From the IMG/VR virus record IMGVR_UViG_3300045988_175974: DNA of 64,000 nt, one strand, 5' to 3'. The notes under the pieces were generated by a model that saw nothing but the letters and a program-made list of their open reading frames with translations, was not told the DNA's origin and did no database searches. This document shows positions 16,317 through 50,207 of the stretch, piece by piece (the stretch's first letter is position 1; each line of letters begins with the position of its first letter). The stretch is from a virus. A program made the translations under genes and the position numbers.

Positions 16317-16404
16317 AAAGCTTTTGCCCTTACAGGGCGAAGGAAACCGCACGCCTATACCCAGGGTGATACCCTGGGCTAGGAGCTTCTGCCCTTGCAG
16401 GGCT
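16317..16404 (-). repeat. Family A triple-hairpin intergenic repeat, copy A1.
   Basis: AAAGCTTTTGCCCTTACAGGGCG...TACCCAGGGTGATACCCTGGGCTAGGAGCTTCTGCCCTTGCAGGGC. Confidence 0.85.
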
Positions 16405-16496
16405 TGCAGGTTAATAAACTAGCAAATGCTTCTACAGCGTGCGGCTTGCGTATTTCTATCTTTTCGTTCAATCTTCGAGCTTCTTTCTTCTGCCGA

Positions 16497-17210
16497 TTAG
16501 TCCTCGAACATCGAGAAGGCTTCTGGACCTTCCAGCTTAAAGGCGGTCTCTACGTACACCAATTTATTGATGCAGTTACGATAGGCATGATAATAAGCTC
16601 GGCTTTTATTTAAGATATTAGACAAGGAACCTTCCTCTCTTACATCTCCATCTTCTATGCCGGCATTGGATAGCGTACCTTTTACGATTTCAAAACGATC
16701 TTCTATCATTGTATTGTAGCGAGCCAAAGGTGCAAGGGTCTCTTCAAGACCCATCGGTACTGACTGGAAGACCTGATTGCCGAGACTAATGCCGCCACCT
16801 GCTACCTTGTGGAATACCTGGCGATAAACCTCGAATACCGGACGAACCTTGCGGGCGATGAAGAACTCAAGGCATGGAACACTAAGCATATAAGTGTTTT
16901 GTGGGCGACCTCCCACATTTCTGCCATCATCTTGTGCGTCATCAGACTTTTTGCCATTTTGGGCAAAAACTCCATCGGTTTTTTGCCCATTTGGGGTAAA
17001 AACTTGATAATCAATACCCTCAACAAACAATTCGTTTGTACGAAGTGCTCTTACCGCCTTACCTTTTTCCTTATAAGCTAATGCCCAAACCTCATCCAGA
17101 TTCACCGGAAACTCCTCCTTGCTTCTTGAAAGGTTCAACACTTGGATAAAGTATGCCTTTATCTCACTATCACTACTCTGCTTTGTTAACTGAAACTTAT
17201 TGTTTACCAT
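16497..17210 (-). CDS. Hypothetical protein (237 aa). A possible phage DNA-binding or antirepressor-like N-terminal domain.
   Basis: The segment PVNLDEVWALAY...KAVRAL...EGIDYQVF loosely resembles KilA-N/antirepressor-type domains. The assignment is weak. Confidence 0.35.
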   Translation of the reverse strand: MVNNKFQLTKQSSDSEIKAYFIQVLNLSRSKEEFPVNLDEVWALAYKEKGKAVRALRTNELFVEGIDYQVFTPNGQKTDGVFAQNGKKSDDAQDDGRNVGGRPQNTYMLSVPCLEFFIARKVRPVFEVYRQVFHKVAGGGISLGNQVFQSVPMGLEETLAPLARYNTMIEDRFEIVKGTLSNAGIEDGDVREEGSLSNILNKSRAYYHAYRNCINKLVYVETAFKLEGPEAFSMFED

Positions 17211-17283
17211 GATTTCTTACTTTTAAAATGAATACATACCTAATTTTTAACCTTTTGGTAAAAAAGTACCCAAAGAAAAATTA

Positions 17284-17487
17284 TCAGTTCGCAACAGATG
17301 CTTTAGGTTGGAACGTAGAGCGTAAACAATCGCACAATACTTCTACTCCCATCGTATAGGAAGTAACTCTGTCGTCGCTCATCTGAGAGAAATCGGGTGG
17401 TGCAGTGGCAAGCTGCTCGATTACTGCCGTGGCTGCCTCCTGAAGGTCAGCTTTACCCATTGGTAGGGTAATGGTTGTTTCTTTCAT
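17284..17487 (-). CDS. Hypothetical protein (67 aa), first minus-strand gene of the divergent control region.
   Basis: ATG-initiated ORF divergent from the XRE gene. Confidence 0.4.
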   Translation of the reverse strand: MKETTITLPMGKADLQEAATAVIEQLATAPPDFSQMSDDRVTSYTMGVEVLCDCLRSTFQPKASVAN

Positions 17488-17837
17488 TTTTTATATATAT
17501 TTATTAGACATGCGCACATTATTAATTTAAAAGAAGCAGTGCGCCTCGCCCCTTGTCTAATGGCATACATATCAGGAAAATGAATAACCCTTTAAATAGC
17601 CACGCCAGCGACATTACATCGCAAGCAGGGGAGTGCGCACTGCAATATTGCGTATGCGACATCTCTGTATCAGAGACACAGCATGTGCTTCGATACAATA
17701 TTCATTTCCGATATGTTTTATTTTTTAGACGGTGCAAAGATACTGAGTTTTATCGAAACAACCAAACATTTTTCGAGAAAAATTCATTTTTACGTGAATA
17801 TTTCTACAAAAATCTTGTTTATATCAATATTTCTTTG

Positions 17838-17845
17838 TACTTTTG
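17838..17845 (+). promoter_or_regulatory. -7 promoter box TACTTTTG for the XRE gene.
   Basis: TAnnTTTG match 34 nt upstream of ATG 17879. Confidence 0.5.
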
Positions 17846-17878: not shown

Positions 17879-18298
17879 ATGAAGAAACTAGATATTAAAC
17901 GTGCTCTAAGCGAACACAATATGACACAGGCAGACCTCTATCAGAAAATCGGTATGTCGCCGCAAGCCATCTGCATGATCATCAAGAACAACAACCCCAC
18001 CGTTGCCAAGCTGATGCAGATAGCTGAAGGCATCGGCTGCGACATCACCGACCTCTTCTATCCCGACCCTGCGGAAGAGGCAGAAGAGAAAGAGACTCCT
18101 GCCGAAACGGAAAACAGTGGTGAAACTCTGGACGCTACGCTACGGGGCGATTTGCCGGAAGGTGTCATCGAAAGAGACGTGAATTTTGTGCAGCAGGCAG
18201 AAGAAAATCAGCAGCAGATGATTCAGACTTCCACCTTCTGCCCTCACTGCGGAAAGAAAGTAAGGGTAGGAGTGGTGCTGCTTCCCGAAGAAGGATAA
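17879..18298 (+). CDS. XRE/Cro-CI-family helix-turn-helix regulator with a C-terminal CxxC zinc-ribbon-like tail. Candidate phage repressor.
   Basis: HTH segment NMTQADLYQKIGMSPQAICMIIKNNNPTVAKLMQIAEGIGCDITDLF, with C-terminal CPHCGKKV. It is one of only two plus-strand genes. Confidence 0.8.
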   Translation: MKKLDIKRALSEHNMTQADLYQKIGMSPQAICMIIKNNNPTVAKLMQIAEGIGCDITDLFYPDPAEEAEEKETPAETENSGETLDATLRGDLPEGVIERDVNFVQQAEENQQQMIQTSTFCPHCGKKVRVGVVLLPEEG

Positions 18299-18351
18299 AT
18301 GATGAATATTGAATAATTAATAATGTATAACACTTTAAACGGAATGAAGAA

Positions 18352-19206
18352 ATGAAACAGAATTTTCTAACTATGATGAAGCGTTCCCTGATGGCTATCT
18401 CTGCAGTGGTGGTCATGGGAATGATTACGGCATCGCTCACGGCTTGCAGCAGCAACGAGGACGAGAGTGAGAAGAATGCGGCTAAGGTGAAGGAATATCT
18501 TGCCGGCAACGAATGGACCATCAACAGCACCAGCGGTACTTATTCTTACTATAAGAACCACATGGTTTATTACGAGGGTAGCGGCAGCATGAGCTCGGGC
18601 GGTCTCTTCGGAGAGCCTAACACTGCCTTCGGCTACTGGCAGATGGAGGGCGACAAGCTTACTACCCGCTTCGAGGTGGGTACTCCAGAAAGCTTCAATA
18701 TCAAGAATCTGCTGAACGGAACTCTATCGGGTGTGCATCTGCAGGAGAGCAACAAGATTACGGGCAGCAGGGTATCTATCAGCATCGATATGCGTCCGCT
18801 GATTGTGGGCACCCTGCCTAACGGATATGAATGCCAAATGAGATGCGGCAAGTCGATGGATGATATTTCTGACGAGACGGACCACGATGTGGCGCTGAGG
18901 GGCACCTGGTATTGCGTCGTAACCTATACCAATGCCGAGGATGGAAAGAAGAGGAACTGCATGGCTTCCATGACGTTTAACGAGGATGGCACCATGCACA
19001 TGGTGATAGAGAGCGTCAGCGATCATACTGCTACCTACACCACTAAGAACGGAAAGGTTACTATCAATGGTTTCCTGAGCAAGAGCGATGTGGTTACCTT
19101 CTATTACAAGAACCTTTCTGGTATAGAGATTAAGCTGTATAGCTGCGAGAACGGCTATCTCTCGTCTATATGGTTTAAGAATAGGGAAGATGCAGAGCGA
19201 TATTAA
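18352..19206 (+). CDS. Lipoprotein (284 aa) co-transcribed with the repressor-like gene. Candidate moron or superinfection-exclusion factor.
   Basis: Signal peptide plus lipobox AVVVMGMITASLTAC. Confidence 0.7.
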   Translation: MKQNFLTMMKRSLMAISAVVVMGMITASLTACSSNEDESEKNAAKVKEYLAGNEWTINSTSGTYSYYKNHMVYYEGSGSMSSGGLFGEPNTAFGYWQMEGDKLTTRFEVGTPESFNIKNLLNGTLSGVHLQESNKITGSRVSISIDMRPLIVGTLPNGYECQMRCGKSMDDISDETDHDVALRGTWYCVVTYTNAEDGKKRNCMASMTFNEDGTMHMVIESVSDHTATYTTKNGKVTINGFLSKSDVVTFYYKNLSGIEIKLYSCENGYLSSIWFKNREDAERY

Positions 19207-19922: not shown

Positions 19923-20038
19923 AATGTTTACATTTTATAGTTCAACAATATGCTCCTTATGAGAGCGTTCACACTAACAAAGATGGCTCGGAAGTTTGCT
20001 CTAAACAGGTAGCGTGGACCTCAGAAAGCCGATTCCAA

Positions 20039-20346: not shown

Positions 20347-20358
20347 TGGGGTGGGGGG

Positions 20359-20488
20359 AGCTTTTGCCCTTACAGGGCGACAGGCGTGCGACTACCGTTA
20401 CCCAGGGCGATTGCCCTGGGCTAGGAGGGGCTGCCCTTTCAGGGCGCATGGGTGAAGGAGGGGCTGCCTTTTCAGGGCGCATGGGTGA
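20359..20488 (-). repeat. Family A repeat, copy A2, with its 33-bp terminal module tandemly duplicated (20423-20455 and 20456-20488).
   Basis: Read directly. A third partial unit overlaps the stop codon of the 153-aa gene. Confidence 0.85.
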
Positions 20489-20496: not shown

Positions 20497-20958
20497 TTAG
20501 GCTTCTGCTTGCTTCATCAAGGCTAATATCTCCTTGGCTCTTGCCTTGCACTGCAGGCGGAAATTCTCGAAATCTTCAAACTCGGCGGCTATGCTGCGCT
20601 CTTCTATCTCGTTGCAGGAGGACGGCATGTTCTGTACCATCAGCGCATTGTTGACGATGGCTTCTACATCGTCTTTGCTATATCGGCTCCTCACTAACGC
20701 CGTTACCAATGGACCATAATAGGTGGCGGCGCTATCGGCTACGCTGTCTCGCTGGGCTATATAGCTCAAGATAGAGGCAAGGGCTTCATTGAGCATGTTC
20801 TGCACTGGAAGGGCCAAGAGGATTTCTTTGGCGGATGCCTGGGCATTTACGCTTACTACACTAGGATTTTCTTTACCCGATGTAACGACTACATTCAGGT
20901 ATTTCTTCTCTTTTCCTACGGATACGGAGAAATAGGGGTTTGTGGGTTTCTTTTCCAT
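20497..20958 (-). CDS. Hypothetical protein (153 aa).
   Basis: ATG-initiated ORF with a consensus promoter upstream. Confidence 0.55.
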   Translation of the reverse strand: MEKKPTNPYFSVSVGKEKKYLNVVVTSGKENPSVVSVNAQASAKEILLALPVQNMLNEALASILSYIAQRDSVADSAATYYGPLVTALVRSRYSKDDVEAIVNNALMVQNMPSSCNEIEERSIAAEFEDFENFRLQCKARAKEILALMKQAEA

Positions 20959-23254: not shown

Positions 23255-26200
23255 CTAAAGGCTGAAGGTGAATGCCACTGCCGCCCTCACCGAGAAGCTG
23301 ATGTACTTGTAGTAGCCGCCAGTGTAGCCGTCGTAGGAGTACACGTGCCACGCGTAGCCGCGGCTGCTCTCAGTACTAGCCCAATAGACCGCGGATTGAT
23401 ACATCATAGCAACAGGGCAGACGGCAGATTTATCCTTAGCTCGCTTCAGCAGATTGGCGAATAACGGCGTTACAGCCTCGCTCTCCGGTCGCTCATTGGC
23501 GTAATCGATGGATGCGGCGGTATTGTTCTGCCATCCCCTACTGTTACCGAAGAAGTTATAGACTCTCGCCAGCTCGCCTTCTGAAGGTAGATACCAGTTG
23601 CCTTTCTTGTACTGCTCATTCAGCGTAGAGGTTCCGCTGACCGATGGCTCGTAAAGATGGCATCCGTATGCAGCAGGGTAATAGAGCTGCTTCCAGGTGT
23701 CAGGATATGTAGCACCCTCATCTGCCTTCTTTTTTACAAGCGCCGCCATACGATTAGACAATTCCTGTAGCGTTTTCGGATAGGACTCATCAAGATAGAG
23801 ACTGATCACATTGTTCGCCCATCGTACTATAGCATCAGTGTTGCTTTTTCCGTCAAACTCGTTCAATCTAGATTTCGGGTCGAGCACCTTGTAACCGTCT
23901 TCTGTTGTAGTATCCTGATACGATTCCGTCGTAATTCTACCGTCTTCTTTCAGCTCACCATCCTCATTCGTATTATAGAGTTCTCGAGTATATCCATTCG
24001 GCAGGTCCGCAATATCACAAATATCGCCAACACCCACAGCAGTACCTATCTCATCAAGCACATCCTGTCCGACCGTATATAGAAGATAATTATTACCATC
24101 TGTATTATCGGTTATTGCAGGAAAGATACCCCAAGGAATGTACGATGAATTGATGGTCTTGTCATCTGACACATAAGAGACGTTCTCGGCAGAATACACT
24201 CTTAACCGGATTTGGCTATCTGAGAGCTTTTCCGACTTGAATACTACTCCTACACACGTCTTAGACGTATCAAGCTCATCATCGAAACTTCCGTCAGAAT
24301 ATGCAAAATCACCGACTCTAGGAATGCGGTTATAGAAACCGACACCTTTAGTATAGGTCAGCTCCGTCCCGTCTGTCAGTTCAATGCGCACCCTTACCTG
24401 GAATTTCAAATCCAGCGAAGCATCAGAAAGTTTTTTTACGTTCAGCGTACCCTTCACATGGTCGGTAAACTCGGCATATTGCCCGGCTTGCTCCGCATTA
24501 TCTCCCACAAACTGATAATCTACGGCAGGGCGATTATTCCTCACCGCGATATTGTTACCAGAAGTAGGAAGAATATCCAGTTTCCACTGGTTCCATATAC
24601 CCGTCTGCTTGATATATTTATCGCCGCCTACTTGAATCTTGCTAATCGTTCGCTTCGGATAAGACACATACAGAGGGTTGCTTGTGCTCTGAATGTTTCC
24701 GTACTTTTCTATCAGGTCGAAGACCTCAGCAAAAGTCAGCAATCCAGCCGAACCGTCAATAAGAATTATCTTACCGCTTATCGTGCTGCTCTTGGCAGCG
24801 GTCAGGTATCTGAGCACATCCGCTCTCATCGAGCGGTAGTTTACTCCCGTAAGCTTCACGGTGGATAATGCGAGCGGACTACCTTCCTGCTTGTACTCAT
24901 AGATAGACGTAACAAGCGCCTCGGAACTGATACCCAGGCTGGAATCATCACATTCGAGCGAAACAAGCTGACTAGCTCCCTGCAAGGAAACCATCTTCAA
25001 AACTGGCAACTCTGAGAGTGACAGCTTCGAGAGATTGGCGGGGAGCGCCACACTTGTCAGTACCTTGCTCTTAGGCAATCGCACATCGTAGATAGCCGTA
25101 TCCTTAACGTTGATGGTATGCAGTCGCACCAGATTGGTTGTATCTAGCGAACCGCCGATCTCCACGCATCCCTTCAGCGACAACTTCTGCACTTGAAGTG
25201 CAGAAACGATAATGTTGTTCGGACGGAACGCAGGAACCATCTTGCCAGTCACCATATCCTTATAGAGCATGGTAGGCTCGGCTATTACCTCCGTTAATCT
25301 CTTGCCGTTAATGGTAACGGAAAGGTTCGGAGAAGTAGAGAGATTACCGATGTTGCCGATGGAGTGGTAGTAATTGATACCCAGGATTGAGAGACCCGTA
25401 TCATTGGAAGTGGTCGTACCCAGATTCAACTCATATTCCTCATCCGGCGCTACACGCACGTGAGGGTCCACGCTGGTCTGTCCCATCATACCGGTAGGGT
25501 AAAGATACTGCGAAGGTTTCACCTTGAACTTATATTCCGTTGCCGAAGTAGCAGAATCAGGAAGGTGGAATGCCTGCATCGCAAAAGTATCGGTTACGTC
25601 TGCCACACCGATATTCTCACTCTTACCGCCATCGAAGAGATTACCCCAGGCTGCGTAGCTCGCCATATAGACCAGTCGCTGCTTCATATACTGCCGCTCA
25701 CCGAGGATAGATGATCCGCACGACTGCGTGATAGGAGCCACACCGCGCGCACCGGAACCGGAACTGATGAATCCGAGCATCGCAGGATATTCGTATCTGA
25801 TACGAGCCTGCTCCGCGAAAGCAATCTCACTGAAATAGCAGTTTACATAGAAGAGATACTTCCACAGACAGCCCCATACGCTCACCTTTGATGTTCCGTT
25901 CCAGCCCTCGATATGGTCGTTTTCTGATACCAGCTTACACATCGCAGAGAAGATGGATTTCAGCATCGACTGCAATTCACGGGTATTCTCGTAAGCTTCC
26001 TCACAGAGATTGAACAATACATTGTTCATACCCTCATACTGCGAAGTAGTCTTGTCGTTGTCGGCATAAGGGTGCATACGATCCACGTAATATTTTTTGG
26101 TAAATCTTCCGTTGTTGTCGGTCGCCATGATGGTATCTACGTCGTCCTGATGCAGCTCCATCAATACGCAGTGCCTGGTCTCGCCATCGATGGTTACATC

Positions 26201-29200
26201 CTTCTCCGTGGCAAGCACATAGTAGGTGTTCTTGGAACAGTTGTCCGTACCTGCCATAAAATGATTGATGAAGGCGTAATGGAAACGGAGGCTCTTTTCA
26301 TCGATATACCAGCCGACGTACTTTTTGAAGTGAGCCACGATAGCGGCAATCAGCTCTTCGTTGAGCTTGGCAAACTGCGCCTTATTAGCAGACGCATTAT
26401 AGGCAGCTTGCGTCATCTCGTAGGTACGGAGATCGATACGCTCGAAAGCGCCGTTCTTCCACAATCCGGCATCTACCCACTTCCTGTTTACGAAATTGTA
26501 TCGTTTCAGGACATAGGCATCATCACCCTGCGTACACCAATACTTGAACTGGGTATTCTTTGCCTCGTCAGACAACTGGAAATCATTGAAAGTGCCAACG
26601 TAATGTTTGATTCTCGGAGCATGCAGATAAATGAAGTTGAATATCTCAGCTATTCTATTGGTCAGATGGTCCTTCGGATATTCCTTGCCGTTTATCACGG
26701 TGGTGGCTCCCCCATCAAAATCGATGCACTGCAATCCGTTGTAGAAGTAACCCTCGTCATCCGGAGAATAGGTAATAACTTCAGGGCAGGTTTTATCCAA
26801 CGTAAACGGAACTCGCATATCCGTCAGGTCGTAGTTGTTATCCGAACCCTCAAACATAGCGAAGTTAGGATAAAGCTTCTTGACATATCCCCACGTTGGC
26901 TTATCCATCTTTCCAGCTCCGAAATTGCCGCCGCCACGGAATACAGGCTTGCTCTCTCCCTCGCCTTGCGTAAAGAAATATACAGGTTCGGTGTACTTGG
27001 CAACTCGTGCCGTAGAGCAGGCTTGCTGAAGCGAGTTCTTGCCCACAACGATGTCGTGAAGGTCGTTAAAGAGACGACAGCAACCGGTAAGGTGTGACTG
27101 CATGGAAGAGGCATAGTTGATTTTCAGCACCAGCTTCACAGCGTAAGGAGTATTGAAACCTACCTGATAGCCAGCACCGCGGTACTTGCCGTTGCCGTCA
27201 ATCCATCCGTCAGGAACCTCTACCGATGGCACACCCGCTACCTCTACGTATCTGTAGAGCTTTGCTTCATTCTTCACCGGATCAGATTTTCCGAGATTAC
27301 CACCGTAAATAGCGACGAATCTCTCTGTTTCCTGCGTCTCGGCATTGGTAACAGGGTCTTGCAATACCCACGTCAGGTTGCTGCCCAGATTTACGAGAGG
27401 TACGATAATAACACCTGCGTCCGAAATCTTGGTCTGGTGATTAGAGTAGAAGTAAGTGTTAGCGGTAGAACCCTGACGCTTATCCTTCATCTTGGTCTCC
27501 TTGCAGATGGTACCAGAAAGTTCCGGAATATAGTTGCCATCCTCGTCATATTGAAAAATCTCCCACCATACCTTCTGCGAACCGCTGTTGTAGAAGTACG
27601 GCTCCACGCCGTGCAGAATCAGCACACGTTTGCCGAGTGCCTTCACCTTCTCAACATCCACTTTCTCGCCCGTGAGAATGTCGTTGCGCTTGCGTGCCGC
27701 ATTCTTCTCCTCGGTGGTCGGCAGAGTAGAAATGTAATCATCAATGACATTCTTGCTCTCCAACTGCATGTTCTGGTAGCATCGGAACGAATAAATATCA
27801 ATATCGGCTGCCTCCTGACCGATGGTGATACCGCCGTTACTCATCGCTCCGGTGCAGAACTCCTCCTTGTTGGATGTAGAGAACTTCACTTCTCTCACCG
27901 GGTCGCCATTCAGAAAAATGCGCGCCAGCGGAATGGTCGTGGCTGCGGTATTCAGTGAATCACTGGTAGGTACCAGTGCATCACCTTTGTTTGGTATCAC
28001 GGCATTATGGATGTTCAGTGCCAGATGTACACGTTCATTTTCTTCAATGTGGAAATCTACCTCCGAGTCGGTGCTGTTGGATGCAGAATAGATATAGCCT
28101 TCCAATGGCAGGAGTTTGAAACCGATGGTATTGCCAGCCACCTGCTCGCAGATTTGGATGATTGCCTTCTTGGTATCGGTGACGTTGCGCACGCGAAGGT
28201 CGAACTCGAAGGTCATAGACGAATCCGGGGTAGTGTAAAACTGAGAGAACGGATTGAACTTGAAGTTGACCGATGATCCGGCAGGCACACGGAGCACCTT
28301 GATACCGTCTTCGGCAGTTACCCAACCGTCATTTACAAAACCGAAATTCTTCCAGGTGCTCGCCACCTCGGCATTGTTTGCCTTGGCATTATAAATCTTG
28401 CGAGGGTCCTTCTCGGTATTGTTGCGCACTTTTGGATTGAGCAGGAATGTGGCTCCTGCGGTAGGCGCATAAGCCTCGGTGTTATCGATGTCGATGCTGA
28501 CATTATCTACGCCCATACAGTCGGTGAGGAAATCCACCTCCTCGTCGCCTACCTTACGGTACGCACGGAAATAGGCAGTAAACTTGTTGGACTGCTCATC
28601 CAATTCAATTTCCACCGTAGTGGAGAGGGTTGACTGAACGCCAGGCTGCACGTCCTGCTCTACACGGAAGTATTCTGTCACCTTATCGGAAGGGAACTTG
28701 TCGGTATAGGAGGTAAGATAGAAGATGGTGGTAACATTACCGCCATCATTGGTGATGCTTCCATCGCTGTTTACCTTCGGGCTATACACCGCATAATCGC
28801 AAAGCTTCACCTGAGTGAAGTTGACCGCCTCCTTTACCAGGTTCTGAATCATCAGATACGGCTTTCTAATATCCACACCTGCGGTCTGGGGATTGATGAT
28901 CATAAAACGGTTCTCCAGAACATCCGATTTCAGCGTGCCACCCAATCCGTCGTCGCAGGTAAGCCAAGCCTTTACCAGTCGCACACCGTGAGTAAAGAGC
29001 TTGTAGGTATCTGTAGGGTCCTTGTAAGTGCTTCGCACGGTGGTTCCGTTCTCGGTAGAGGCAGAATCACGGTTGATGGTCAACACCTGACCATTGCCAC
29101 CGGTAATCTCTATATGCAGGGTTTTCTGCACCTCGCCGTTCACCAGGTAGGCATAAGGGAAACCATTCGCCTGCTGGGTAGCGGCATAGATGGGGGTATG

Positions 29201-29926
29201 GTAATCCTGCCGGCAACTCAAAGAGAGGTTGGCGAGGGTTACGGATGCACCGATCACTACATAGGTAGAAGCCTGGCTCTGCTGGTTGCCATCACCGTCG
29301 AGATAAGTAAATCTCGCCTGCACTCTCACCTGCTGCGTGCCATCGGTGAGATAGGGTCCCAGATCGATGTTCTTATATTCGGTGGTATTGGAATAATCGG
29401 TAGAATCCAATACTTCCTCCAGGGTCGCTACGGTCTGCCAGGCGTTTGTACCGCTCTTGCGCTGTACCACCAGTGTACCCTTACTGCCTACGTTCAATCG
29501 GTCGCCGTTACTGGTACGCACGGCGTGGAAACGAAGGGGAACAATCAGCTCCTTTTTCGCTACTACAAGATTTTTGGTAGAAGAGATGGTAGAGAAGAGA
29601 TAAGCGCCATAGCTATCTCCTTGCACGGTAGAGATAGGCAATGCCTCGTCAACAAGCAGGAGTGCCTTGATACTCGCATCCTCTTTGTCTCCTGCGGCAT
29701 AAGCTTTGTAGTCTGCCTCATTGCGGAATCCCCACAGGTGATAGTAGTTGCTGCTATCGACGGTAGGAGACCAATGGTAGTAACCGACCTTCCTATCGTG
29801 CTCCTTCAACAAAGCCTGTAATGCTTCTCTTACCGCCTTACCCGAATAAGGCAAGCCGTTTCGTGCATCCTTACCCCAGTCTTCGGTAAGGACGTTGATA
29901 ATTTTGTTTTGACTGATTTTTGCCAT
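23255..29926 (-). CDS. Giant tail-fibre or receptor-binding-like protein (2,223 aa from ATG 29926) with a C-terminal C-type-lectin/DUF1566-like DGR-variable domain.
   Basis: Uninterrupted ORF. The C-terminus reads ...GNWYLPSEGELARVYNF...YWASTESSRGYAWHVYSYDGYTGGYYKYISFSVRAAVA. The ORF-track start at 29968 is a TTG. Confidence 0.85.
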   Translation of the reverse strand: MAKISQNKIINVLTEDWGKDARNGLPYSGKAVREALQALLKEHDRKVGYYHWSPTVDSSNYYHLWGFRNEADYKAYAAGDKEDASIKALLLVDEALPISTVQGDSYGAYLFSTISSTKNLVVAKKELIVPLRFHAVRTSNGDRLNVGSKGTLVVQRKSGTNAWQTVATLEEVLDSTDYSNTTEYKNIDLGPYLTDGTQQVRVQARFTYLDGDGNQQSQASTYVVIGASVTLANLSLSCRQDYHTPIYAATQQANGFPYAYLVNGEVQKTLHIEITGGNGQVLTINRDSASTENGTTVRSTYKDPTDTYKLFTHGVRLVKAWLTCDDGLGGTLKSDVLENRFMIINPQTAGVDIRKPYLMIQNLVKEAVNFTQVKLCDYAVYSPKVNSDGSITNDGGNVTTIFYLTSYTDKFPSDKVTEYFRVEQDVQPGVQSTLSTTVEIELDEQSNKFTAYFRAYRKVGDEEVDFLTDCMGVDNVSIDIDNTEAYAPTAGATFLLNPKVRNNTEKDPRKIYNAKANNAEVASTWKNFGFVNDGWVTAEDGIKVLRVPAGSSVNFKFNPFSQFYTTPDSSMTFEFDLRVRNVTDTKKAIIQICEQVAGNTIGFKLLPLEGYIYSASNSTDSEVDFHIEENERVHLALNIHNAVIPNKGDALVPTSDSLNTAATTIPLARIFLNGDPVREVKFSTSNKEEFCTGAMSNGGITIGQEAADIDIYSFRCYQNMQLESKNVIDDYISTLPTTEEKNAARKRNDILTGEKVDVEKVKALGKRVLILHGVEPYFYNSGSQKVWWEIFQYDEDGNYIPELSGTICKETKMKDKRQGSTANTYFYSNHQTKISDAGVIIVPLVNLGSNLTWVLQDPVTNAETQETERFVAIYGGNLGKSDPVKNEAKLYRYVEVAGVPSVEVPDGWIDGNGKYRGAGYQVGFNTPYAVKLVLKINYASSMQSHLTGCCRLFNDLHDIVVGKNSLQQACSTARVAKYTEPVYFFTQGEGESKPVFRGGGNFGAGKMDKPTWGYVKKLYPNFAMFEGSDNNYDLTDMRVPFTLDKTCPEVITYSPDDEGYFYNGLQCIDFDGGATTVINGKEYPKDHLTNRIAEIFNFIYLHAPRIKHYVGTFNDFQLSDEAKNTQFKYWCTQGDDAYVLKRYNFVNRKWVDAGLWKNGAFERIDLRTYEMTQAAYNASANKAQFAKLNEELIAAIVAHFKKYVGWYIDEKSLRFHYAFINHFMAGTDNCSKNTYYVLATEKDVTIDGETRHCVLMELHQDDVDTIMATDNNGRFTKKYYVDRMHPYADNDKTTSQYEGMNNVLFNLCEEAYENTRELQSMLKSIFSAMCKLVSENDHIEGWNGTSKVSVWGCLWKYLFYVNCYFSEIAFAEQARIRYEYPAMLGFISSGSGARGVAPITQSCGSSILGERQYMKQRLVYMASYAAWGNLFDGGKSENIGVADVTDTFAMQAFHLPDSATSATEYKFKVKPSQYLYPTGMMGQTSVDPHVRVAPDEEYELNLGTTTSNDTGLSILGINYYHSIGNIGNLSTSPNLSVTINGKRLTEVIAEPTMLYKDMVTGKMVPAFRPNNIIVSALQVQKLSLKGCVEIGGSLDTTNLVRLHTINVKDTAIYDVRLPKSKVLTSVALPANLSKLSLSELPVLKMVSLQGASQLVSLECDDSSLGISSEALVTSIYEYKQEGSPLALSTVKLTGVNYRSMRADVLRYLTAAKSSTISGKIILIDGSAGLLTFAEVFDLIEKYGNIQSTSNPLYVSYPKRTISKIQVGGDKYIKQTGIWNQWKLDILPTSGNNIAVRNNRPAVDYQFVGDNAEQAGQYAEFTDHVKGTLNVKKLSDASLDLKFQVRVRIELTDGTELTYTKGVGFYNRIPRVGDFAYSDGSFDDELDTSKTCVGVVFKSEKLSDSQIRLRVYSAENVSYVSDDKTINSSYIPWGIFPAITDNTDGNNYLLYTVGQDVLDEIGTAVGVGDICDIADLPNGYTRELYNTNEDGELKEDGRITTESYQDTTTEDGYKVLDPKSRLNEFDGKSNTDAIVRWANNVISLYLDESYPKTLQELSNRMAALVKKKADEGATYPDTWKQLYYPAAYGCHLYEPSVSGTSTLNEQYKKGNWYLPSEGELARVYNFFGNSRGWQNNTAASIDYANERPESEAVTPLFANLLKRAKDKSAVCPVAMMYQSAVYWASTESSRGYAWHVYSYDGYTGGYYKYISFSVRAAVAFTFSL
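23272..23397 (-). repeat. DGR variable repeat (VR) encoding the last ~42 residues of the target protein.
   Basis: 108 of 126 positions are identical to the TR. 17 of the 18 mismatches fall at TR adenines (coding strand). Confidence 0.85.
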
Positions 29927-30058
29927 ATAAAATATGTTTAATTTTTCCAACCTAGATTTTCCGTCCAAGGCTTCTCGTTAAGCCATAGACCGCTAGCGAA
30001 GCATGATAATACCGCTACCGCTGCCATTAACAATCGTCTTCTGAATCTACTCATAAGC

Positions 30059-35778: not shown

Positions 35779-35815
35779 CAAAGATAAAGGTTTTTGCGGT
35801 TTTAAGGGGGACAAA
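35779..35815 (-). promoter_or_regulatory. Promoter: TTTGTCCCC, N20 spacer, TATCTTTGCCC.
   Basis: Plus strand shows CAAAGATA at 35779-35786 and GGGGACAAA at 35807-35815. Confidence 0.55.
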
Positions 35816-35962
35816 AAAGCTTTTGCCCTTTCAGGGCGCATTGATGCTGCTGCCATTACCCAGGGTGTTACCCTGGGCTAGGAGCTGCTGCCCCTTCAGG
35901 GCGTATAGACGACGATAAGGGCAGCAGGGCGTATAGGCGATGATAGGACTGCAGGGCGTGCT
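35815..35962 (-). repeat. Family A repeat, copy A3, with extra CAGGGCGTATAG-type modules.
   Basis: AAAAGCTTTTGCCCTTTCAGGGCG...TACCCAGGGTGTTACCCTGGGCTAGGAGCTGCTGCCCCTTCAGGGCG followed by two further CAGGGCGT repeats. Confidence 0.85.
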
Positions 35963-38509: not shown

Positions 38510-38598
38510 AAAGCTTTTGCCCTTACAGGGCGACATAAACCACATTCCATATACCCAGGGTGTTGCCCTGGGCTAGGAGCTTCTGCCTTTACAGGGCG
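38510..38598 (-). repeat. Family A repeat, copy A4. Its last hairpin overlaps the final codons and stop of the 949-aa gene.
   Basis: AAAGCTTTTGCCCTTACAGGGCG...TACCCAGGGTGTTGCCCTGGGCTAGGAGCTTCTGCCTTTACAGGGCG. Confidence 0.85.
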
Positions 38599-41438
38599 TA
38601 CACAGTTAACTCTACTTCGCCCATACCCGTCTTGGCATCAATGGTGGTATTCACCTTGTCAATGAGGCATTTCATACCGCCTATGTTCCACCAATCCTGC
38701 CAGTGATTCGGTATATCGGCAACTTGTGCTACGGTGGTGGTGCATCTTACCATGAACTTCTTTCTGTTCAGAAGGAAGTAGGCGTAGGGAAGAATGAAGG
38801 TGTCAAAGAGGCCGCGAGAGCGGATTTTAGTCACTACCTTGCCGTTCTCATCTACTTCATCGGCATTGCAGAGTACCAAATCCTTATACTTCGGATCTTT
38901 TAGCCACGATGGTTCCTTGAAGGCTCGTATCTTCAGAGAAAAACGCTCACCATCACCTACACCTTCCTGCACACCGTTATAATCAAACACGTTGCCCATC
39001 ATATCCAGCGAGTCGCAAGCTAGGGCATACTTACCCGATACGGTGCGCCATTTGGAGGTTCCGAAATGATCGTAGTTGTAATCGTAAGACTGTCGGGTAG
39101 CATCGCTACCACCGCCACGCATCAATGCAACCGCAAAGCCCCATCGTGAATCATCCTGCAACGGAGAATTGCCATCATCGGTATCCGACGGGTCGTAGCT
39201 TTCTACAAGCGATAGGGTTTGCTGCATATAAAAATCGCAGAAAGCAGTGGAAATAGTCTGATTGATAATCTGCTCAACAAACTCATGCTCCATATCCTCA
39301 TCTACATAAGCGCAGAGAATAGGCTGACTATCGGCAATGGTTACACCATATTTCTTGCCGTTATAGGAGTCGATTGCCTCGTGAGAGCCATAGGCAGCCT
39401 CTATCTCTTTGAAATAATTGACATCATTAAACGGAACAGGAGTAAAATCTACCGAAATATCGTGAACGAAATCTTCGTTTTCATCACTGCAATCTCCATA
39501 TTCCACACCCTTGAACTGGCCTACCTCAAAGAGTACCGGTTTCAAGTCGGCTGTCGTGGTTGCATCACTATTCACCTTTACGCGATAAGCGTTGCCAGTC
39601 TTGCGGTCGATATAGCAGTGCTTATCTCCACTACTCAGATTATGGAAGAAATCGATGTAGTCGAGATTATAGACGGTGGAGTTATCGCCACTATCAGGCG
39701 CAGGGTAATCGATGTAATCGTAATCGGTAGAATAACCCATATTCTTGTTTTTGCGGCTATCGAGCACATTCTGCCGCTGATCTTTTGCGTCGCTCTCTGC
39801 CGAATAGCGCATACGTACACCGGTAATCTTTTCGGTCATCGGGACCATGGAGTGGATATTGGCATGGAAAGTTCTCGCCTCGTTGCCGCTCTTGCGTAAC
39901 ACATCACGGGTAAGGTAAGCTGTTACCTTCTTCTGTTCGTAATCATACGAAAACTTGATACCAAAGGCGCTTTCAAGTGAAGAGATAACGGAACTTACGC
40001 TCTCATCAGGGAAATTGCCGCTGTTGGCTACCATATTGAGTACGTTTGCCTGCACCTTGAACTTGCTGATTTTTGCCTCGATGCTGATACCAGTGACCTT
40101 GCCGCCATCATCACGAACCTCGCCAACCTGTATATGCTCGGTGGTGCCTTCGGGTGTGTGGAGTGTTAATTCCTGCACGTCCTTATTCTCTGCCTTCACG
40201 ATGTTTATCTTTCCGCCGCAACCACGGCTTTCCAGCCATGAATTGATATGCTCCTGACTTTGAAAATAACCCGTCTTGATTTCGCCAGCTTTCTTCTTCT
40301 TGGCGATGACTTCGGCATCGTCTTTTCGATAATAAGTGCCATGGTGAGTGTGAAGACCAGGTTGTTTTGCACCCGTAGGGTCTTCCTCGTCGTACTGGTA
40401 GCTGACAGTATCGTAACTGCATACGGTCGTGAAGAAGCAGAGATGCTTCAAATCCTCTATCTCCATCAATGCCTTCTTGTCGAAAGTTACGCCCAGATAG
40501 GCAAAAAGGCAATCGAGGAAATAGAGCACATAGAAGCAGATACCCGACTGCGGACGTTTTGCATCCAATACCCAGTAAGGATAAAGGTCTTCGTTCGTCC
40601 AGGTGCAATCTTTTATGCTGATTACATCACTTGCGGTCTTTCCGTCATCATCTAACCCGTGATGCTTATAGCAGATACGAGCGTTACAATAGGTAGCGGC
40701 TCTGCCTGCACCATCTGTTTCACCATAAGCTGCTGCGGTATTGATATAATTGCCATTGCTGGCAATGACTGGCTCATTTACCTTGTGATTCTGAGGATAA
40801 GAACGCTCTGAAAGCTTCCGTGCATCACCCATATAATGCTGGGTAGATGTAGAAGTGTATTCATTGCAGCTTGCAGGGTAGGAAAAACCTAAGGCTTGCG
40901 GTTCCAAGACCTTGCTTACGCTTACATGGTCTGCCCTAATTTCGTGGTTTTCCGTATGATCATGCTTATGCTTGCCTCCAGTAACAAATACATCTACCTT
41001 TACTACCGGATCACTTTCAATATCCACCCTTACGTTTCCTATCTTCTCGCCGATGATAATCTGGTCCTTCACCGGAATATCTCGGCACTGCAGGTCGCTG
41101 ATAAGCTCGCTGAAACTCTGCGTGCTGGCATCGATATTCATGCTGAGTGAATTGGTTATTTCCTCACCATCCTGCATAACCAGGGTACCGCTGCGGAAAG
41201 GCAGTCCGTCGGCATTGATACGAGTAGGCAGGTGCTCCATGTTGACGGCTCTTACCGCCGCATGCACGTCCTCAATGTTCTTTACCAGCCAACGGTTGCC
41301 GTCTAGCGGAATGGAAAATGGATAGGAGAACATTTCCGTATCGTTGAATACCGGATTCTGATCCTCTATATCTATAGAGAAATCATCGGGCAGAGCCACC
41401 GGCTTATCTTTGATTAATATAGAGAGATGCGAGTTCAT
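38589..41438 (-). CDS. Large virion protein (949 aa), function unknown (baseplate or tail-hub-like by position).
   Basis: Long ORF in the structural module. It overlaps the upstream gene by 4 nt. Confidence 0.65.
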   Translation of the reverse strand: MNSHLSILIKDKPVALPDDFSIDIEDQNPVFNDTEMFSYPFSIPLDGNRWLVKNIEDVHAAVRAVNMEHLPTRINADGLPFRSGTLVMQDGEEITNSLSMNIDASTQSFSELISDLQCRDIPVKDQIIIGEKIGNVRVDIESDPVVKVDVFVTGGKHKHDHTENHEIRADHVSVSKVLEPQALGFSYPASCNEYTSTSTQHYMGDARKLSERSYPQNHKVNEPVIASNGNYINTAAAYGETDGAGRAATYCNARICYKHHGLDDDGKTASDVISIKDCTWTNEDLYPYWVLDAKRPQSGICFYVLYFLDCLFAYLGVTFDKKALMEIEDLKHLCFFTTVCSYDTVSYQYDEEDPTGAKQPGLHTHHGTYYRKDDAEVIAKKKKAGEIKTGYFQSQEHINSWLESRGCGGKINIVKAENKDVQELTLHTPEGTTEHIQVGEVRDDGGKVTGISIEAKISKFKVQANVLNMVANSGNFPDESVSSVISSLESAFGIKFSYDYEQKKVTAYLTRDVLRKSGNEARTFHANIHSMVPMTEKITGVRMRYSAESDAKDQRQNVLDSRKNKNMGYSTDYDYIDYPAPDSGDNSTVYNLDYIDFFHNLSSGDKHCYIDRKTGNAYRVKVNSDATTTADLKPVLFEVGQFKGVEYGDCSDENEDFVHDISVDFTPVPFNDVNYFKEIEAAYGSHEAIDSYNGKKYGVTIADSQPILCAYVDEDMEHEFVEQIINQTISTAFCDFYMQQTLSLVESYDPSDTDDGNSPLQDDSRWGFAVALMRGGGSDATRQSYDYNYDHFGTSKWRTVSGKYALACDSLDMMGNVFDYNGVQEGVGDGERFSLKIRAFKEPSWLKDPKYKDLVLCNADEVDENGKVVTKIRSRGLFDTFILPYAYFLLNRKKFMVRCTTTVAQVADIPNHWQDWWNIGGMKCLIDKVNTTIDAKTGMGEVELTVYAL

Positions 41439-44474: not shown

Positions 44475-46178
44475 TTAAGAGGCTTCTTGTTTCGCCACTC
44501 CGGTCTTCGAGTTATCGAGGGTGGTTAATACCTCTCGGTCTATCTGCCACACCAGGTGCTCGTCCCAATCGTTGAATCGGCTCAAAACTTCCAATGGGCG
44601 TATCATCAACTGCTGCAATGGGGCAAACTGAATCTGTTTTACCAGGAAACGTTCTCTCAGGTCGGTACCGCCCGATGATGCCGTATCGCCAGGAGTATTA
44701 CCGATGAGCTTTGCATCAAGACCCATGGCAAAGAAAATAATACTACTTATTTCCTGCAACTCGGTTTTGTCGGCATTCGCCTGATCATTTGCCTTGGTTT
44801 CGATTTCCACGATTTCCCAAGCTTTGTGCTCTTTCCCATCGCTGCCCGTGAAGGCAGAGGAAATGAGCGCCTGACCTGCATTATCGGGATTGGCGAGCCA
44901 TGTATTGATAGAGGTGAAGATTTCGTTCTGAATCTCACCATGGGTTTTCTTTTTCTTCTCACCCTGCTGCTGATAGAGCCTGCTAATATAGTCCTGGTGG
45001 ATATAGATGACACGACCGATGATGTTGCTGTTGCGCTTCCGGGTGAGGCGATCATCTACGATGGTGAAGGCATACTCAAAAATGCTGCCGGCAAAGATGG
45101 AGTGCCAAAGGGCATCGGCATAGTATGGACCGCCGAAATCTCTTGGTGACATGATGAAGCGGGTAGGGCGTTTCTTGCGGCTTACCTGCTTCTGACGTGC
45201 CTCACGGATATTGCGCTGCAAATCCTTTACGGCTGATGTGGTAGGGAGATAAGGGATAGCCGCTATCTTGCGGTCTTCCTCTTTCTGCACGCCGACGTAT
45301 TGGGTAGGGTCGAGCCACTGATTGCTGACGTAGGCATAGTTGATGCGGTAGTTCTCGTCCATGCGCTCCAGTCGGGTAGTGAAGATGCTGCGATGCTTCA
45401 GACCGATTACCTTCGGGGTCCATTGGGCAGTAGGAACAGCTTTGCCGCTTTCGTCGAGGGAACGCTGATTGAGCTGAAGTTCTACAAAGCATTGTGACAT
45501 CAAAGCCATATCTCCTGCCAAATCGAGGAAGGTCTGCATCAGGTCGTTGTTTTCGATGAAATCGCGAACCTGGGCATTGGTTTCTTCCCATTTGTGGAGG
45601 GCTTCTTTCAGAGATTTCATCTCCTCGCTTTCCTCTTCCTTGGCTTTCAGGTCAGCTATCTGACCACGGAGCAGGACTCCTGCACTCTCGTAGGGGATAT
45701 ATTTCTCTGTGATGTTGCCGCCAACGTACTGGGTGTAATGATACTTGGCTGCGGGACCGCGACCTACCAGTATTTTCTTGATGTAATCTACTCCTGCTGC
45801 TGTGAAAGGCGACATGCGCGAGAGCATCCAGATAAGGTTTGGCAGTCGGTTGGCCATACCCCATTCCATAAAGCCTAAGCCTTCGGTACCTACGCCTTTT
45901 GGTTTGCCCAGGTTCTCGCCGCCACTTGATGCAAAGATAGTGGAAACCTGCTGCCGTGCTGCGGAACCGCCTGCGTCGCCACCACTTGCCGACATACCGG
46001 CTGTGGTTAGGAGCATGCCGTGAACGTAGTCGTTCCAGGAAAAGACTTTACCGCCGCCATTTTTAAGCGGCGTAAAGGCATCCGGGCGAACGGCTACATA
46101 GCCTGCATCTTTCAGTTCCTCACTACGATTTTGGAGCTGCTGCAGGTTGGTTACTCTGTTTTTGTTTTTGCTTGCCAT
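44475..46178 (-). CDS. Portal-like protein (567 aa).
   Basis: The call rests on size, position at the head of the structural operon and general portal-like sequence character. No diagnostic motif was verified. Confidence 0.5.
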   Translation of the reverse strand: MASKNKNRVTNLQQLQNRSEELKDAGYVAVRPDAFTPLKNGGGKVFSWNDYVHGMLLTTAGMSASGGDAGGSAARQQVSTIFASSGGENLGKPKGVGTEGLGFMEWGMANRLPNLIWMLSRMSPFTAAGVDYIKKILVGRGPAAKYHYTQYVGGNITEKYIPYESAGVLLRGQIADLKAKEEESEEMKSLKEALHKWEETNAQVRDFIENNDLMQTFLDLAGDMALMSQCFVELQLNQRSLDESGKAVPTAQWTPKVIGLKHRSIFTTRLERMDENYRINYAYVSNQWLDPTQYVGVQKEEDRKIAAIPYLPTTSAVKDLQRNIREARQKQVSRKKRPTRFIMSPRDFGGPYYADALWHSIFAGSIFEYAFTIVDDRLTRKRNSNIIGRVIYIHQDYISRLYQQQGEKKKKTHGEIQNEIFTSINTWLANPDNAGQALISSAFTGSDGKEHKAWEIVEIETKANDQANADKTELQEISSIIFFAMGLDAKLIGNTPGDTASSGGTDLRERFLVKQIQFAPLQQLMIRPLEVLSRFNDWDEHLVWQIDREVLTTLDNSKTGVAKQEAS

Positions 46179-46340: not shown

Positions 46341-46358
46341 GAACGGATGCTCCTCTTC

Positions 46359-48542: not shown

Positions 48543-48596
48543 TTTGTTTTGCTCTATAAATCGTTAATCAAAGGCTGTTGTCTAACCATATACAAA

Positions 48597-48968
48597 TCAA
48601 GAGAACGAGTCAGGCTCCAAATTGGCAATATAACAATAACGCTGCACGTCGTTTTCGCTAATGAACATTTGCCAATTCTGTTCGTCGTGGGAGAAATGTT
48701 CATGCACAAAATGAGTGCCATCGCGTCGCCAACAAAGAAGCGACCCTATGCAATGCGGTTTCTCTCTGGCTGGGTGCAACAGTTGAACAATGTTGCGATA
48801 TTCTGCTGTTTCATTCACTTCTTCATCACAAAGGGACACATTTTTGACGCTTATGCCATTTGCTTCATTCTCAAGACAAACTACATCTTCTGTTGTCTGA
48901 CTTTCTATCATTTCAAGAGCCTTTGATGATAAGAATATCACGTTAGGCAGTCTGTTGTTTCTTTCCAT
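48597..48968 (-). CDS. Hypothetical protein (123 aa).
   Basis: ATG-initiated ORF co-oriented with its neighbours. Confidence 0.5.
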   Translation of the reverse strand: MERNNRLPNVIFLSSKALEMIESQTTEDVVCLENEANGISVKNVSLCDEEVNETAEYRNIVQLLHPAREKPHCIGSLLCWRRDGTHFVHEHFSHDEQNWQMFISENDVQRYCYIANLEPDSFS

Positions 48969-48990
48969 AATCTTATTGTTTTTATAATCA

Positions 48991-50097
48991 TTATTTCCCT
49001 CTCCTCATCTTTTCCATTTCCTCATTCTCTTTCGACAACCTTTCCAGGTGTTCGAGAACCAGGGAATAGGATTGAGTGTTGACCTGATCTTCTGTTAGGC
49101 CGGCATACTTTTGCATCGTAGCGGTGGTGGCGGTGTAGATTTCCATCGGGGTTTGCAGCTTCTTATTATCTACCTTCTGCACCTTGAATACATGAGGGTA
49201 GCGATGGGCTAGGGTGTGCATGATGCCACTCCACCAGAAGAGGATAACCTGCCAGTTGGCTTCCGGATATTTGACGAAATAACCTGCGTTCTCGGTAAAC
49301 TGCTTTGACTCGTAATGAAAATCGTATTTCGTGATGCCTGTTGTCGGGTCGACGTACTGGGTGGTGGTGTTGAAGATGGTGGCAAGGAACATGTTTCTGG
49401 CACTGGCTACACTCTGGGCTTGCGTCTGGAGTTGTTCCTCGGTGAACTTATTCATCTGCTTCATCTTTACCAGATTATTGCTTAACTTAGTGTAGGTCTG
49501 CATCATATCACTGGCAAAACGGTATTGCTGCCAGGAGAAGCCATCGAGGTCTTGGTGCGGACCTTGGAAGGCTTTTGCACGACGGTACCACTTGGTTTTC
49601 TGCCGGATAGATGGATAGGGGAAGCGGGTGAGGAAATTACCGCTATCTGCATCCAGCCAGTCGAGAAGACCTGCGCCCTGAGCGATGTACTCAGGGGAGG
49701 TCTTATCATCGGTCTTGGCTTTCGAGGAGAGCCAATAGTTGAGCTGCCAGAGATAGAGGGGGAAGGGGATAGCCGATTGGGTACCAGCGATAGAATCGCT
49801 GGGAACAGGGGTACAGATGGTGAGGAGCTTCTTCAGGAGGCTCTTCTTCTGCGGCTCTATGCTTACCAGGTAGTGCTGCTCATTGATGGGCAGACGAGGG
49901 TCGGGGTAGGCATTGATGCTTATCCCCGCAAAAAGGAAGAAAACGGCTATCTTCACCTTCTGCATATCGAAGGGGTGATAGCGGTCTGCCTTGGATTTCT
50001 CTATCTGCTCCAGCATGATGAGGGCAATCTGCTCTAGCTGGGAAGGGGTGCATTGGTTCCAGCCCTTTGGAATTGTAAGATTTATTTGTTCTTGCAT
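48991..50097 (-). CDS. Hypothetical protein (368 aa). It contains an in-frame copy of the family B hairpin.
   Basis: Long ORF. The hairpin at 49784-49802 encodes ...VPSDSIAG... Confidence 0.6.
   Translation of the reverse strand: MQEQINLTIPKGWNQCTPSQLEQIALIMLEQIEKSKADRYHPFDMQKVKIAVFFLFAGISINAYPDPRLPINEQHYLVSIEPQKKSLLKKLLTICTPVPSDSIAGTQSAIPFPLYLWQLNYWLSSKAKTDDKTSPEYIAQGAGLLDWLDADSGNFLTRFPYPSIRQKTKWYRRAKAFQGPHQDLDGFSWQQYRFASDMMQTYTKLSNNLVKMKQMNKFTEEQLQTQAQSVASARNMFLATIFNTTTQYVDPTTGITKYDFHYESKQFTENAGYFVKYPEANWQVILFWWSGIMHTLAHRYPHVFKVQKVDNKKLQTPMEIYTATTATMQKYAGLTEDQVNTQSYSLVLEHLERLSKENEEMEKMRRGK
49784..49802 (-). repeat. Family B hairpin, copy B3, inside a coding sequence.
   Basis: CCAGCGAT-AGA-ATCGCTGG with the conserved GGGAAC flank. 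Confidence 0.85.
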
Positions 50098-50116
50098 ATT
50101 CTTAATTTTTAAAGGT

Positions 50117-50207
50117 AAAAAAGCTTTTGCCCTTACAGGGCGACTTACTGATTGCTATTATACCCAGGGTGCTGCCCTGGGCTAGGAGCTTCTGCCCTTT
50201 CAGGGCG
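50117..50207 (-). repeat. Family A repeat, copy A5.
   Basis: AAAAGCTTTTGCCCTTACAGGGCG...TACCCAGGGTGCTGCCCTGGGCTAGGAGCTTCTGCCCTTTCAGGGCG. Confidence 0.85.

Follow-up and report, generated by a model that had tools for sequence, protein, structure and literature searches.

Single units of a probable Segatella copri-complex palindromic repeat in the genome of an uncultured gut phage

Repetitive extragenic palindromic (REP) units are about 35 nt long, and contain one hairpin and a GTAG tetranucleotide. The mycobacteriophage mobile elements MPME1/2 are phage-specific and carry a small open reading frame (ORF), and the Correia elements (NEMIS) of Neisseria have defined inverted ends and a TA duplication. 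REP elements, together with bacterial interspersed mosaic elements (BIMEs) and REP doublets forming hairpins (REPINs), are known from Proteobacteria (Higgins, Gilson; Nunvar 2010; Bertels & Rainey 2011; Ton-Hoang 2012). Here, these systems are compared with Family A, an approximately 90-nt, three-hairpin element present in five copies between positions 16,317 and 50,207 of a 64,000-nt stretch of viral DNA (IMG/VR record IMGVR_UViG_3300045988_175974; the whole stretch is referred to below as the window). Family A is very probably a host-type palindromic repeat, and the Segatella (Prevotella) copri complex, in which it abounds, is likely to be the host of the phage. The window copies are probably single units, or “half elements”, of a non-autonomous repeat of the S. 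copri complex that resembles REPs, BIMEs and MITEs (miniature transposable elements with inverted repeats), is mobilised in trans, and in the phage is tolerated and perhaps used.

Family A resembles REP and BIME elements in being composed of short, GC-rich imperfect palindromes, dispersed as extragenic copies at the 3′ ends of genes. Further likenesses are a copy number that is likely to reach tens per genome (crudely ~11 per Mb), inverted doublets of two unit types with a module mosaic, which recall the Y and Z units of BIMEs, and service as a target for insertion sequences (ISs), one of which lies in the loop of the first hairpin, H1, at viral locus L075. The differences lie in the ~90-nt length, the three hairpins, the Bacteroidota host and the residence in phages; in addition, the tetranucleotide CTAG that directly follows the second hairpin (H2) is similar, but not identical, to the GTAG of REPs. 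With regard to MITEs, terminal inverted repeats are provided by the arms of host doublets, whereas the window singlets lack them, and presence/absence differences at orthologous sites are observed, but target-site duplication is not. As with the MPME and Correia elements, the repeats are short and non-coding, are variably present at sites in close genomes and in some cases overlap gene ends; unlike those elements, Family A is present in the host chromosome as well and is without a clean duplication.

The host repeat had already been noticed, since Supplementary File 5A of the SPLASH preprint (bioRxiv 10.1101/2024.01.18.576133) starts with ACCCAGGGTGTTGCCCTGGGCTAGGAGCTTCTGCCCCTTCAGGGCG, which is the H2-linker-H3 portion of Family A. 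The preprint devotes one sentence, without anatomy, to a predicted S. copri “MITE” of ~159 bp, described as nearly palindromic, multi-copy in S. copri and without evident target-site duplications. The sequence is the same, and the description fits the inverted doublets of the host; phages, single units, spacer types and covariation do not feature in the preprint, whereas the window has singlets only. A search of the literature on phage-borne S. copri repeats or MITEs found nothing beyond this sentence, and the residence of the host repeat in phage genomes appears to be undescribed.

Both strands of the window, and shuffled sequence, were scanned with a 26-nt core pattern (CCCAGGGN5CCCTGGGCTAGGAG, with up to three mismatches allowed), which gave five matches, all on the plus strand, compared to 0.00 in the shuffles. 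A covariance model, R1 (98 positions and 21 base pairs, built from 70 diverse phage and host units and run with filters off), identified the same copies at 50117-50213 (105.4 bits), 38507-38604, 35813-35909 and 16314-16410 (97.2 bits each), and 20354-20452 (85.9 bits). The window has exactly five full copies, because the next-best R1 match scored only 13 bits. Both scans thus confirm the five same-orientation copies listed in a preliminary description of this DNA.

The Family A unit is 91-95 nt long and consists, in order, of a lead-in (AAAGCTTTT), hairpin H1 (GCCCT-N3-AGGGC), a spacer of 20-24 nt of free sequence, H2, a linker, and H3. The consensus and the three hairpins proposed previously hold, with the correction that H2 comprises 8 bp and a 3-nt loop (CCCAGGGY-N3-RCCCTGGG). 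It is followed by an invariant CTAGGAG and a near-invariant CTTCT, then by H3 (GCCCT-N3-AGGGC) and G(T). A single H module, AAAGCTTTTGCCCTTACAGGGCG, which comprises an AGCTTYT lead-in and a hairpin, is directly repeated at H1 and H3. The columns of the modules and linker are 0.9-1.0 identical among 84 distinct phage copies, compared to 0.2-0.6 for the spacer and 0.3-0.6 for the sequence just outside the unit, and this last drop defines the ends of the element.

Copy A5 (50120..50207, plus strand, as are the other four) is representative of this anatomy, with the lead-in AAAGCTTTT at 50120-50128, H1 at 50129-50141, a spacer of the type termed host type 2 below at 50143-50162, H2 at 50163-50181, the linker CTAGGAGCTTCT at 50182-50193, and H3 at 50194-50206. 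A1 (16317..16404) is a single unit consisting of the H1 module, a 20-nt spacer (AAGGAAACCGCACGCCTATA) of a type found in phage copies only, H2, the linker CTAGGAGCTTCT, and H3 at 16391-16403; A4 (38510..38598) is also a single unit, with another spacer type known only from phages. A2 (20357..20488), which has a host type 1-like spacer and a 4-nt H2 loop, comprises a unit (20357-20455) and a tandem 33-nt repeat of its linker and H3 module (20456-20488), 97% identical to 20423-20455. In A3 (35815..35962), the unit (35815-35907) is followed by extra degenerate modules (35908-35962) that end in CAGGGCGTATAG, and the extended stem CTGCTGCCC/GGGCAGCAG forms. The A2 duplication and the additional CAGGGCGTATAG modules of A3 had been recognised in the preliminary description. 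Every unit contains CCWGG, AGCT, AAGCTT and CTAG palindromes, and a C-5 cytosine DNA methyltransferase gene is present at 47244-48542 on the minus strand (Pfam DNA_methylase, E = 9e-50), so that methylation of the units and their exposure to restriction may be linked.

The same repeat was found in bacterial genomes. The exact 21-base core pattern is present in at least 120 stretches of GTDB genomes, and nearly all of the core-bearing genomes among the matches listed are Segatella copri and its close relatives; two S. copri plasmid/chromid records also contain Family A. Within 0.70 Mb of host loci, R1 recognises 172 units. The host form differs from that in the window: 108 of the 150 best R1 units (72%) are arranged in head-to-head inverted doublets, which are imperfect palindromes of ~200 bp. 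In a doublet, a reverse-complemented unit, a centre of ~13-19 nt and a forward unit follow one another, with H3 outermost and arms of ~95 nt, and the spacers differ between the arms, being of type 1 (AyAGGnTnGCGyCC..TAAT.A) in one and of type 2 (ACTTGCTGATTGCyATTAy) in the other. The density of the element is ~78 per Mb in the window and ~11 per Mb in the host, the latter a crude estimate from extra elements in the fetched loci. At one host site, a solo H module in strain L201 stands where L147 has a full unit, which is the expected product of recombination between the H1/H3 direct repeats.

Host doublets occupy gene gaps, of which 34 are tandem, 24 convergent and 1 divergent (crude ORF calls). 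Their placement is therefore not random, as divergent gene gaps are avoided. Against its own reading, the preliminary description had set the case of a ubiquitous host REP sequence with random placement; the host repeat is real, but the randomness is not. A Pfam scan of 114 neighbour ORFs revealed housekeeping genes, including those for ABC transporters, dnaA and chorismate synthase, and no window-like DNA was found in the host loci. Ordinary chromosomal genes flank the host units, which are not prophage remnants of this phage. The suggestion of a REP/MITE-like repeat shared with the host is borne out by the abundance of the unit in S. copri-complex chromosomes, mostly as inverted doublets, and by presence/absence differences in related phages.

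In IMG/VR, the exact core is present in 104 stretches, mostly contigs of ~100 kb, and 70 of these are relatives of the window, with which they share 70-95% identical DNA. A 22-kb piece of the window matched GenBank phages only via Family A, the matches being to unannotated human-faecal contigs, and a GenBank search with one unit alone returned seven such contigs. Singlets make up 103 of the 117 units in the phage loci and all five copies in the window. Orthologous copies of A3 are present in L016, L035, L036, L043 and L097, and those of A1 in relatives with a flank identity to the window of only ~73-80%. The A4 site is filled in the window and in L016; L035, L036 and L053 are without window 38498-38595, and in L097, Family A is accompanied by a nested hairpin of Family B (a second repeat family, described below). 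Presence/absence differences among relatives were also found at two further phage sites and one host site, and at another site, L034 has Family A where L080, L085 and L101 have a Family B hairpin. At the A5 site, some relatives have a unit with an A4-type spacer, which, judged by the spacer sequences, indicates copy replacement or gene conversion.

Other observations were made in viral loci. Seventeen viral loci (e.g. L022, L065, L070 and L084) share a Family A copy located approximately upstream of window position 3.5 kb, where the window has none; the copy is in the opposite orientation where mappable (L022 and L070), and the mappable loci are relatives of the window. In the A5-orthologous copy of L075 (607-2258), an IS of ~1.65 kb occupies the H1 loop, with inverted ends GTAGGGTGTTCAAAAT.., an apparent 7-bp duplication (CTTACAG) and three ORFs without a Pfam domain at useful E-values. 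The ends of this IS are unrelated to Family A. REP-like hairpins are known landing sites of ISs.

The repeats could also have served the phages as linker sequences, that is, as joints for homologous recombination by which modules are exchanged. Five ~90-nt direct repeats at gene boundaries would suit this purpose, and identity to some relatives does shift across the A3 and A4 sites; however, when the spread of left-minus-right identity was ranked among 22 gene boundaries, A1, A3, A4 and A5 took places between 5th and 17th, which makes such a function extremely improbable. Breakpoints of module exchange are not enriched at the units compared with other gene boundaries, and this candidate was rejected.

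The modules of orthologous copies change slowly. At the A4 site (n = 14), nucleotide diversity is 0.000 in H1, 0.022 in the linker and H3, 0.063 in the spacer and 0.05-0.09 in the flanks; at A5 (n = 12), it is 0.007 in H1, 0.039 in the linker and H3, and 0.14 in the flanks; and at A1 (n = 5), the values are 0.07, 0.10, 0.13 (spacer) and 0.14 (flanks). The modules thus change more slowly than their mostly coding surroundings, and are either under purifying selection or homogenised by gene conversion. One alternative retains the host-repeat identity but regards the phage copies as selfish or neutral, harmless after stop codons, and uniform by gene conversion. The gain, loss and replacement of copies among close relatives would be expected of such copies, as would the variable orientation across sites and the lack of a terminator signature, and the two spacer alleles at the A5 site show that copy-to-copy conversion occurs. 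Constant whole-unit conversion from the host is nevertheless contradicted by the persistence of phage-only spacer types, and mere tolerance does not readily account for H1/H3 modules whose diversity is 2- to 10-fold below that of the spacer and mostly coding flanks, for the retention of A1 orthologues between diverged flanks, or for the higher density in the window than in the crude host estimate. Neutral residence of this kind is regarded here as possible rather than probable.

The stems of Family A were found to covary. H3 occurs in stem-swapped forms (GCCC..GGGC, GGGC..GCCC and GGCC..GGCC), and compensatory CG-to-GC changes were found at two H3 pairs in 32 and 30, respectively, of 145 host units. 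The eighth pair of H2 is CG in 116 host units, UG in 15, UA in 14 and C-A in 0; the corresponding numbers in phages are 43, 26, 10 and 2. The observed covariation score was reached by 0 of 500 column shuffles, and pairing in slid controls did not exceed 56%. Compensatory change, which the preliminary description had proposed to look for, is thus present, and the covariance model detects copies in the window, in its relatives and in the hosts. Single-sequence folds gave mixed z-scores and allow an alternative long-range pairing between H1 and H3.

Covariation of the stems indicates that pairing matters and argues against a purely duplex-DNA protein site. The units might otherwise be viewed as double-stranded sites (operator, partition or packaging) for a protein that recognises three palindromes, given a spacer held at 20-24 nt and a near-invariant core: across 145 distinct host units, the seven core H2 pairs and CTAGGAG do not vary, and across 84 distinct phage units, the only exceptions are two U-G variants, an invariance that partly reflects the search pattern by which the loci were found. 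A duplex site does not explain why strand swaps in H3 keep the pairing while altering the sequence, why U-G intermediates occur but C-A almost never, or why the element is dispersed over the host chromosome at gene 3′ ends, and we regard it as highly improbable. The U-G intermediates, which outnumber C-A by 41 to 2, favour the plus strand of the unit and are suggestive of its being the folding strand. The mutating C of the U-G variants lies in a CpG, so mutation bias offers an alternative account of the excess.

No Rfam family matched the window at gathering thresholds. At a relaxed threshold, the Acido-Lenti-1 model (RF01687) aligned with the H2-linker-H3 portion over model positions 1-46 of 46, on the plus strand only, with 27.4 bits for A5 (50163-50207) and 31.3 bits for a host unit, compared to a gathering score of 37; the window copies are not Acido-Lenti-1 members by the Rfam criterion. 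The two share an architecture, a 7-bp hairpin, CUA, 9 nt and a 5-bp hairpin with a 3-nt loop, with the same spacing in the seed sequences, but differ in the stem sequences and in the extra H1 module and spacer of Family A. Acido-Lenti-1 has 89 reported representatives, is multi-copy within genomes and has no known function (Weinberg et al. 2010, PMC2864571); its taxa are Acidobacteria and Lentisphaerae, and those of Family A are Bacteroidota and phages. In an Acidobacteriota genome (a Thermoanaerobaculaceae metagenome-assembled genome), several copies of the CCCAGGG-N5-CCCTGGGCTAGGAG core are present with a GCCC-N3-GGGC hairpin after it, and they include one inverted doublet (L119:2930-3085, L121:1720-1860 and L163:6500-6550), which hints at a wider, cross-phylum class of related elements.

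This likeness raises the possibility that the plus strand gives rise to Acido-Lenti-1-type small RNAs, antisense to phage late genes and active as trans or antisense regulators. The strand-specific match with its common geometry and the U-G pairs on the plus strand would fit, but the scores of 27-31 bits fall short of the threshold of 37, the units show no evident promoter or terminator on the plus strand, the two units of a host doublet lie on opposite strands, and CpG context can explain the U-G excess. Small RNAs of this type are very unlikely. A broader proposal holds that H2-CTAG-H3 is the recognition end of cross-phylum elements mobilised as single strands, and that S. copri phages have domesticated singlets as post-stop signals of late operons and ferry the repeat between strains; on present evidence, this is unlikely.

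As the preliminary description had stated, all window copies lie downstream of minus-strand genes: the H3 end of each points at the stop codon of a minus-strand ORF, at a distance of 93 nt in A1, 8 nt in A2, 2 nt in A3 and 34 nt in A5, and with an overlap in A4. A2 lies between the stop of ORF 20497..20958 (minus strand) and a terminator-like hairpin at 20309-20345, in a gap that is convergent, given the plus-strand genes at 17879-19206; left of A1, a codon-position test for the coding strand was ambiguous. The next minus-strand start codon is 44 nt away at A3, 43 nt at A4 and 22 nt at A5. Proximity to a start thus holds for these three copies; for the promoters that had been proposed next to it, a sigma-70 promoter scan gave nothing above chance level (24 matches compared to 19.3 expected), with one 9-of-12 promoter-like match inside A5. 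Because the starts are so close, A3, A4 and A5 must lie in polycistronic late transcripts and cannot be complete stops. A head maturation protease is encoded at 57136..58689, and large tail-like ORFs are located downstream. A tRNA/tmRNA origin was checked and none was found, and GC skew was uninformative on the replication strand.

In A4, the H3 loop provides the TAA stop of the 949-aa ORF 38589..41438 (minus strand), and H3 gives its last codons, Y-A-L, as had been noted previously. The gene ends within the unit as TAC GCC CTG TAA (38589-38600, minus strand), and the element-free allele of L035, L036 and L053 reads TAT GCT TTA TAA, likewise Y-A-L-stop. An older end, TAT GTT TTA TAA, is retained in the window just past A4 (38484-38495, minus strand). 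The A4 target resembles an H module that has decayed, and there may be a TA duplication, which is not general.

The copies do not act as intrinsic terminators: no terminator-like call was obtained at A3-A5 in a scan of 35-51 kb, and no U-tract follows the hairpins. Downstream of the last hairpin, the minus strand reads AAAAGC before any T run, and the plus strand GTGTGG or GTATAG. A third family of small hairpins (AGCCCTGC..GCAGGGCT), flanked by a run of T or A, occurs at 20309-20345 (plus strand), 58868-58904 and 8176-8197; it looks like an intrinsic terminator, the first copy of which ends the plus-strand gene block beside A2.

These results bear on the view that Family A is a regulatory RNA element intrinsic to the phage, namely a terminator, processing site or attenuator, whose bacterial copies stem from prophages. 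The location after stop codons in the late operon, the covarying stems and the Family A copy at the position of a Family B hairpin at one site speak for it. Against it stand the lack of a U-tract, the 22-44 nt between A3-A5 and the next start, which leave no room for a new promoter, the predominance of doublets in the host, their rarity in phages, and the host copies beside housekeeping genes, with no DNA in common with the window. This view is hardly credible.

Family B (GGNCCAGCGATRGAATCGCTGGGAACGG) occurs in the window at 44440-44474, 46319-46353, 49781-49815 and 55726-55760 (plus strand). It is essentially phage-only, with 98 copies in 0.94 Mb of viral loci compared to 2 in 0.84 Mb of host loci. 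Two of the window copies directly follow stops (of ORFs 44475..46178 and 55769..57058), a third is located within ORF 48991..50097, and that at 46319-46353 abuts no stop.

Once in the phage, the units are probably transcribed within operons, in the gaps between a stop codon and the next start. The stem-loops may then act in a REP-like manner, as 3′-end or intercistronic RNA structures that buffer the decay of the upstream message or partly attenuate read-through. Such a role as RNA stem-loops is favoured because Family B hairpins take equivalent places and, at one site, exchange with Family A; a selected RNA-level role remains a tentative proposal, to which we give somewhat less than even chances. 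As to how units enter phage genomes, a putative host enzyme would recognise the hairpins and the adjacent CTAG on one strand, and transfer units to the replicating DNA of the phage. It might be a single-strand transposase, either REP-associated or IS200/IS605-like, or another partner. Microhomology-guided recombination is an alternative route of entry, suggested by the likeness of the “empty” alleles to decayed H modules.

Several results weigh against an S. copri repeat that is mobilised in trans and perhaps used by the phage. With regard to mobilisation, no inverted pair of units 0.4-4 kb apart and enclosing a transposase, as expected of an autonomous element with Family A ends, was found in the fetched loci. 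Weak probes for transposases of the REP-associated and IS200 types matched none of 1,639 ORFs taken from all these loci and the window, and transposases are not enriched among the 114 host neighbour ORFs (Pfam). The insertion junctions are ragged, with no consistent target-site duplication in four comparisons of filled and empty sites. With regard to a use in the phage, the five copies are without the U-tract that would follow a terminator hairpin, and the better-pairing strand, which is also the one matched by Rfam, is antisense to the window mRNAs, so that the mRNA bears a slightly weaker structure. Across the relatives, H3 faces the stop codon at ~8 sites and the opposite direction at ~5; a uniform antisense orientation, although true of the five window copies, therefore fails as a rule. 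Finally, the conservation of the modules could result from copy-to-copy gene conversion instead of selection. The RNA-level element envisaged in the preliminary description thus has results on both sides: the stems covary and the modules are conserved, but the orientation is mixed, the U-tract is missing and the mRNA is not the better-pairing strand.

Other features of the window were also recorded. A diversity-generating retroelement is present on the minus strand, with a reverse transcriptase at 21152-22573 (RVT_1), a template repeat at 22348-22473 and a variable repeat at 23272-23397, the latter at the 3′ end of the 2237-aa ORF 23255..29968; at every core mismatch of this 126-nt repeat pair, the template has an A and the variable copy another base. 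The region 1-480 contains direct repeats with a period of 22 nt (409-481, and 13-63 and 340-368) and inverted repeats (109-341), and 2127-2322 is an AT-rich block of degenerate repeats; both are candidate origin or terminus regions. A sequence, ..CCATAATTTCTAATTTTTAAAATG.. on the plus strand, spans the start codons of minus-strand genes at 8946-8984, 13913-13945, 14211-14249 and 17200-17238, and is probably a shared promoter or leader. Tandem 11-nt repeats of the GATTCTTCGGA type occur in inverted orientation at 20037-20093 and 63103-63170, 43 kb apart.

The presence of the repeat provides a host call, the Segatella copri complex, for a lineage of uncultured ~100-kb gut phages without a close GenBank relative, and this call is independent of CRISPR and tRNA evidence. 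Shared repeats of this kind also call for caution, as they can give rise to assembly chimeras and to spurious BLAST links between phage and host or between phages. The comparison links the Acido-Lenti-1 architecture to a REP/MITE-like repeat lifestyle. It also documents a host interspersed repeat that resides and turns over in phage genomes. The higher conservation of its hairpins relative to adjacent genes prompts one to ask whether REP-like elements of the host are co-opted by phages.

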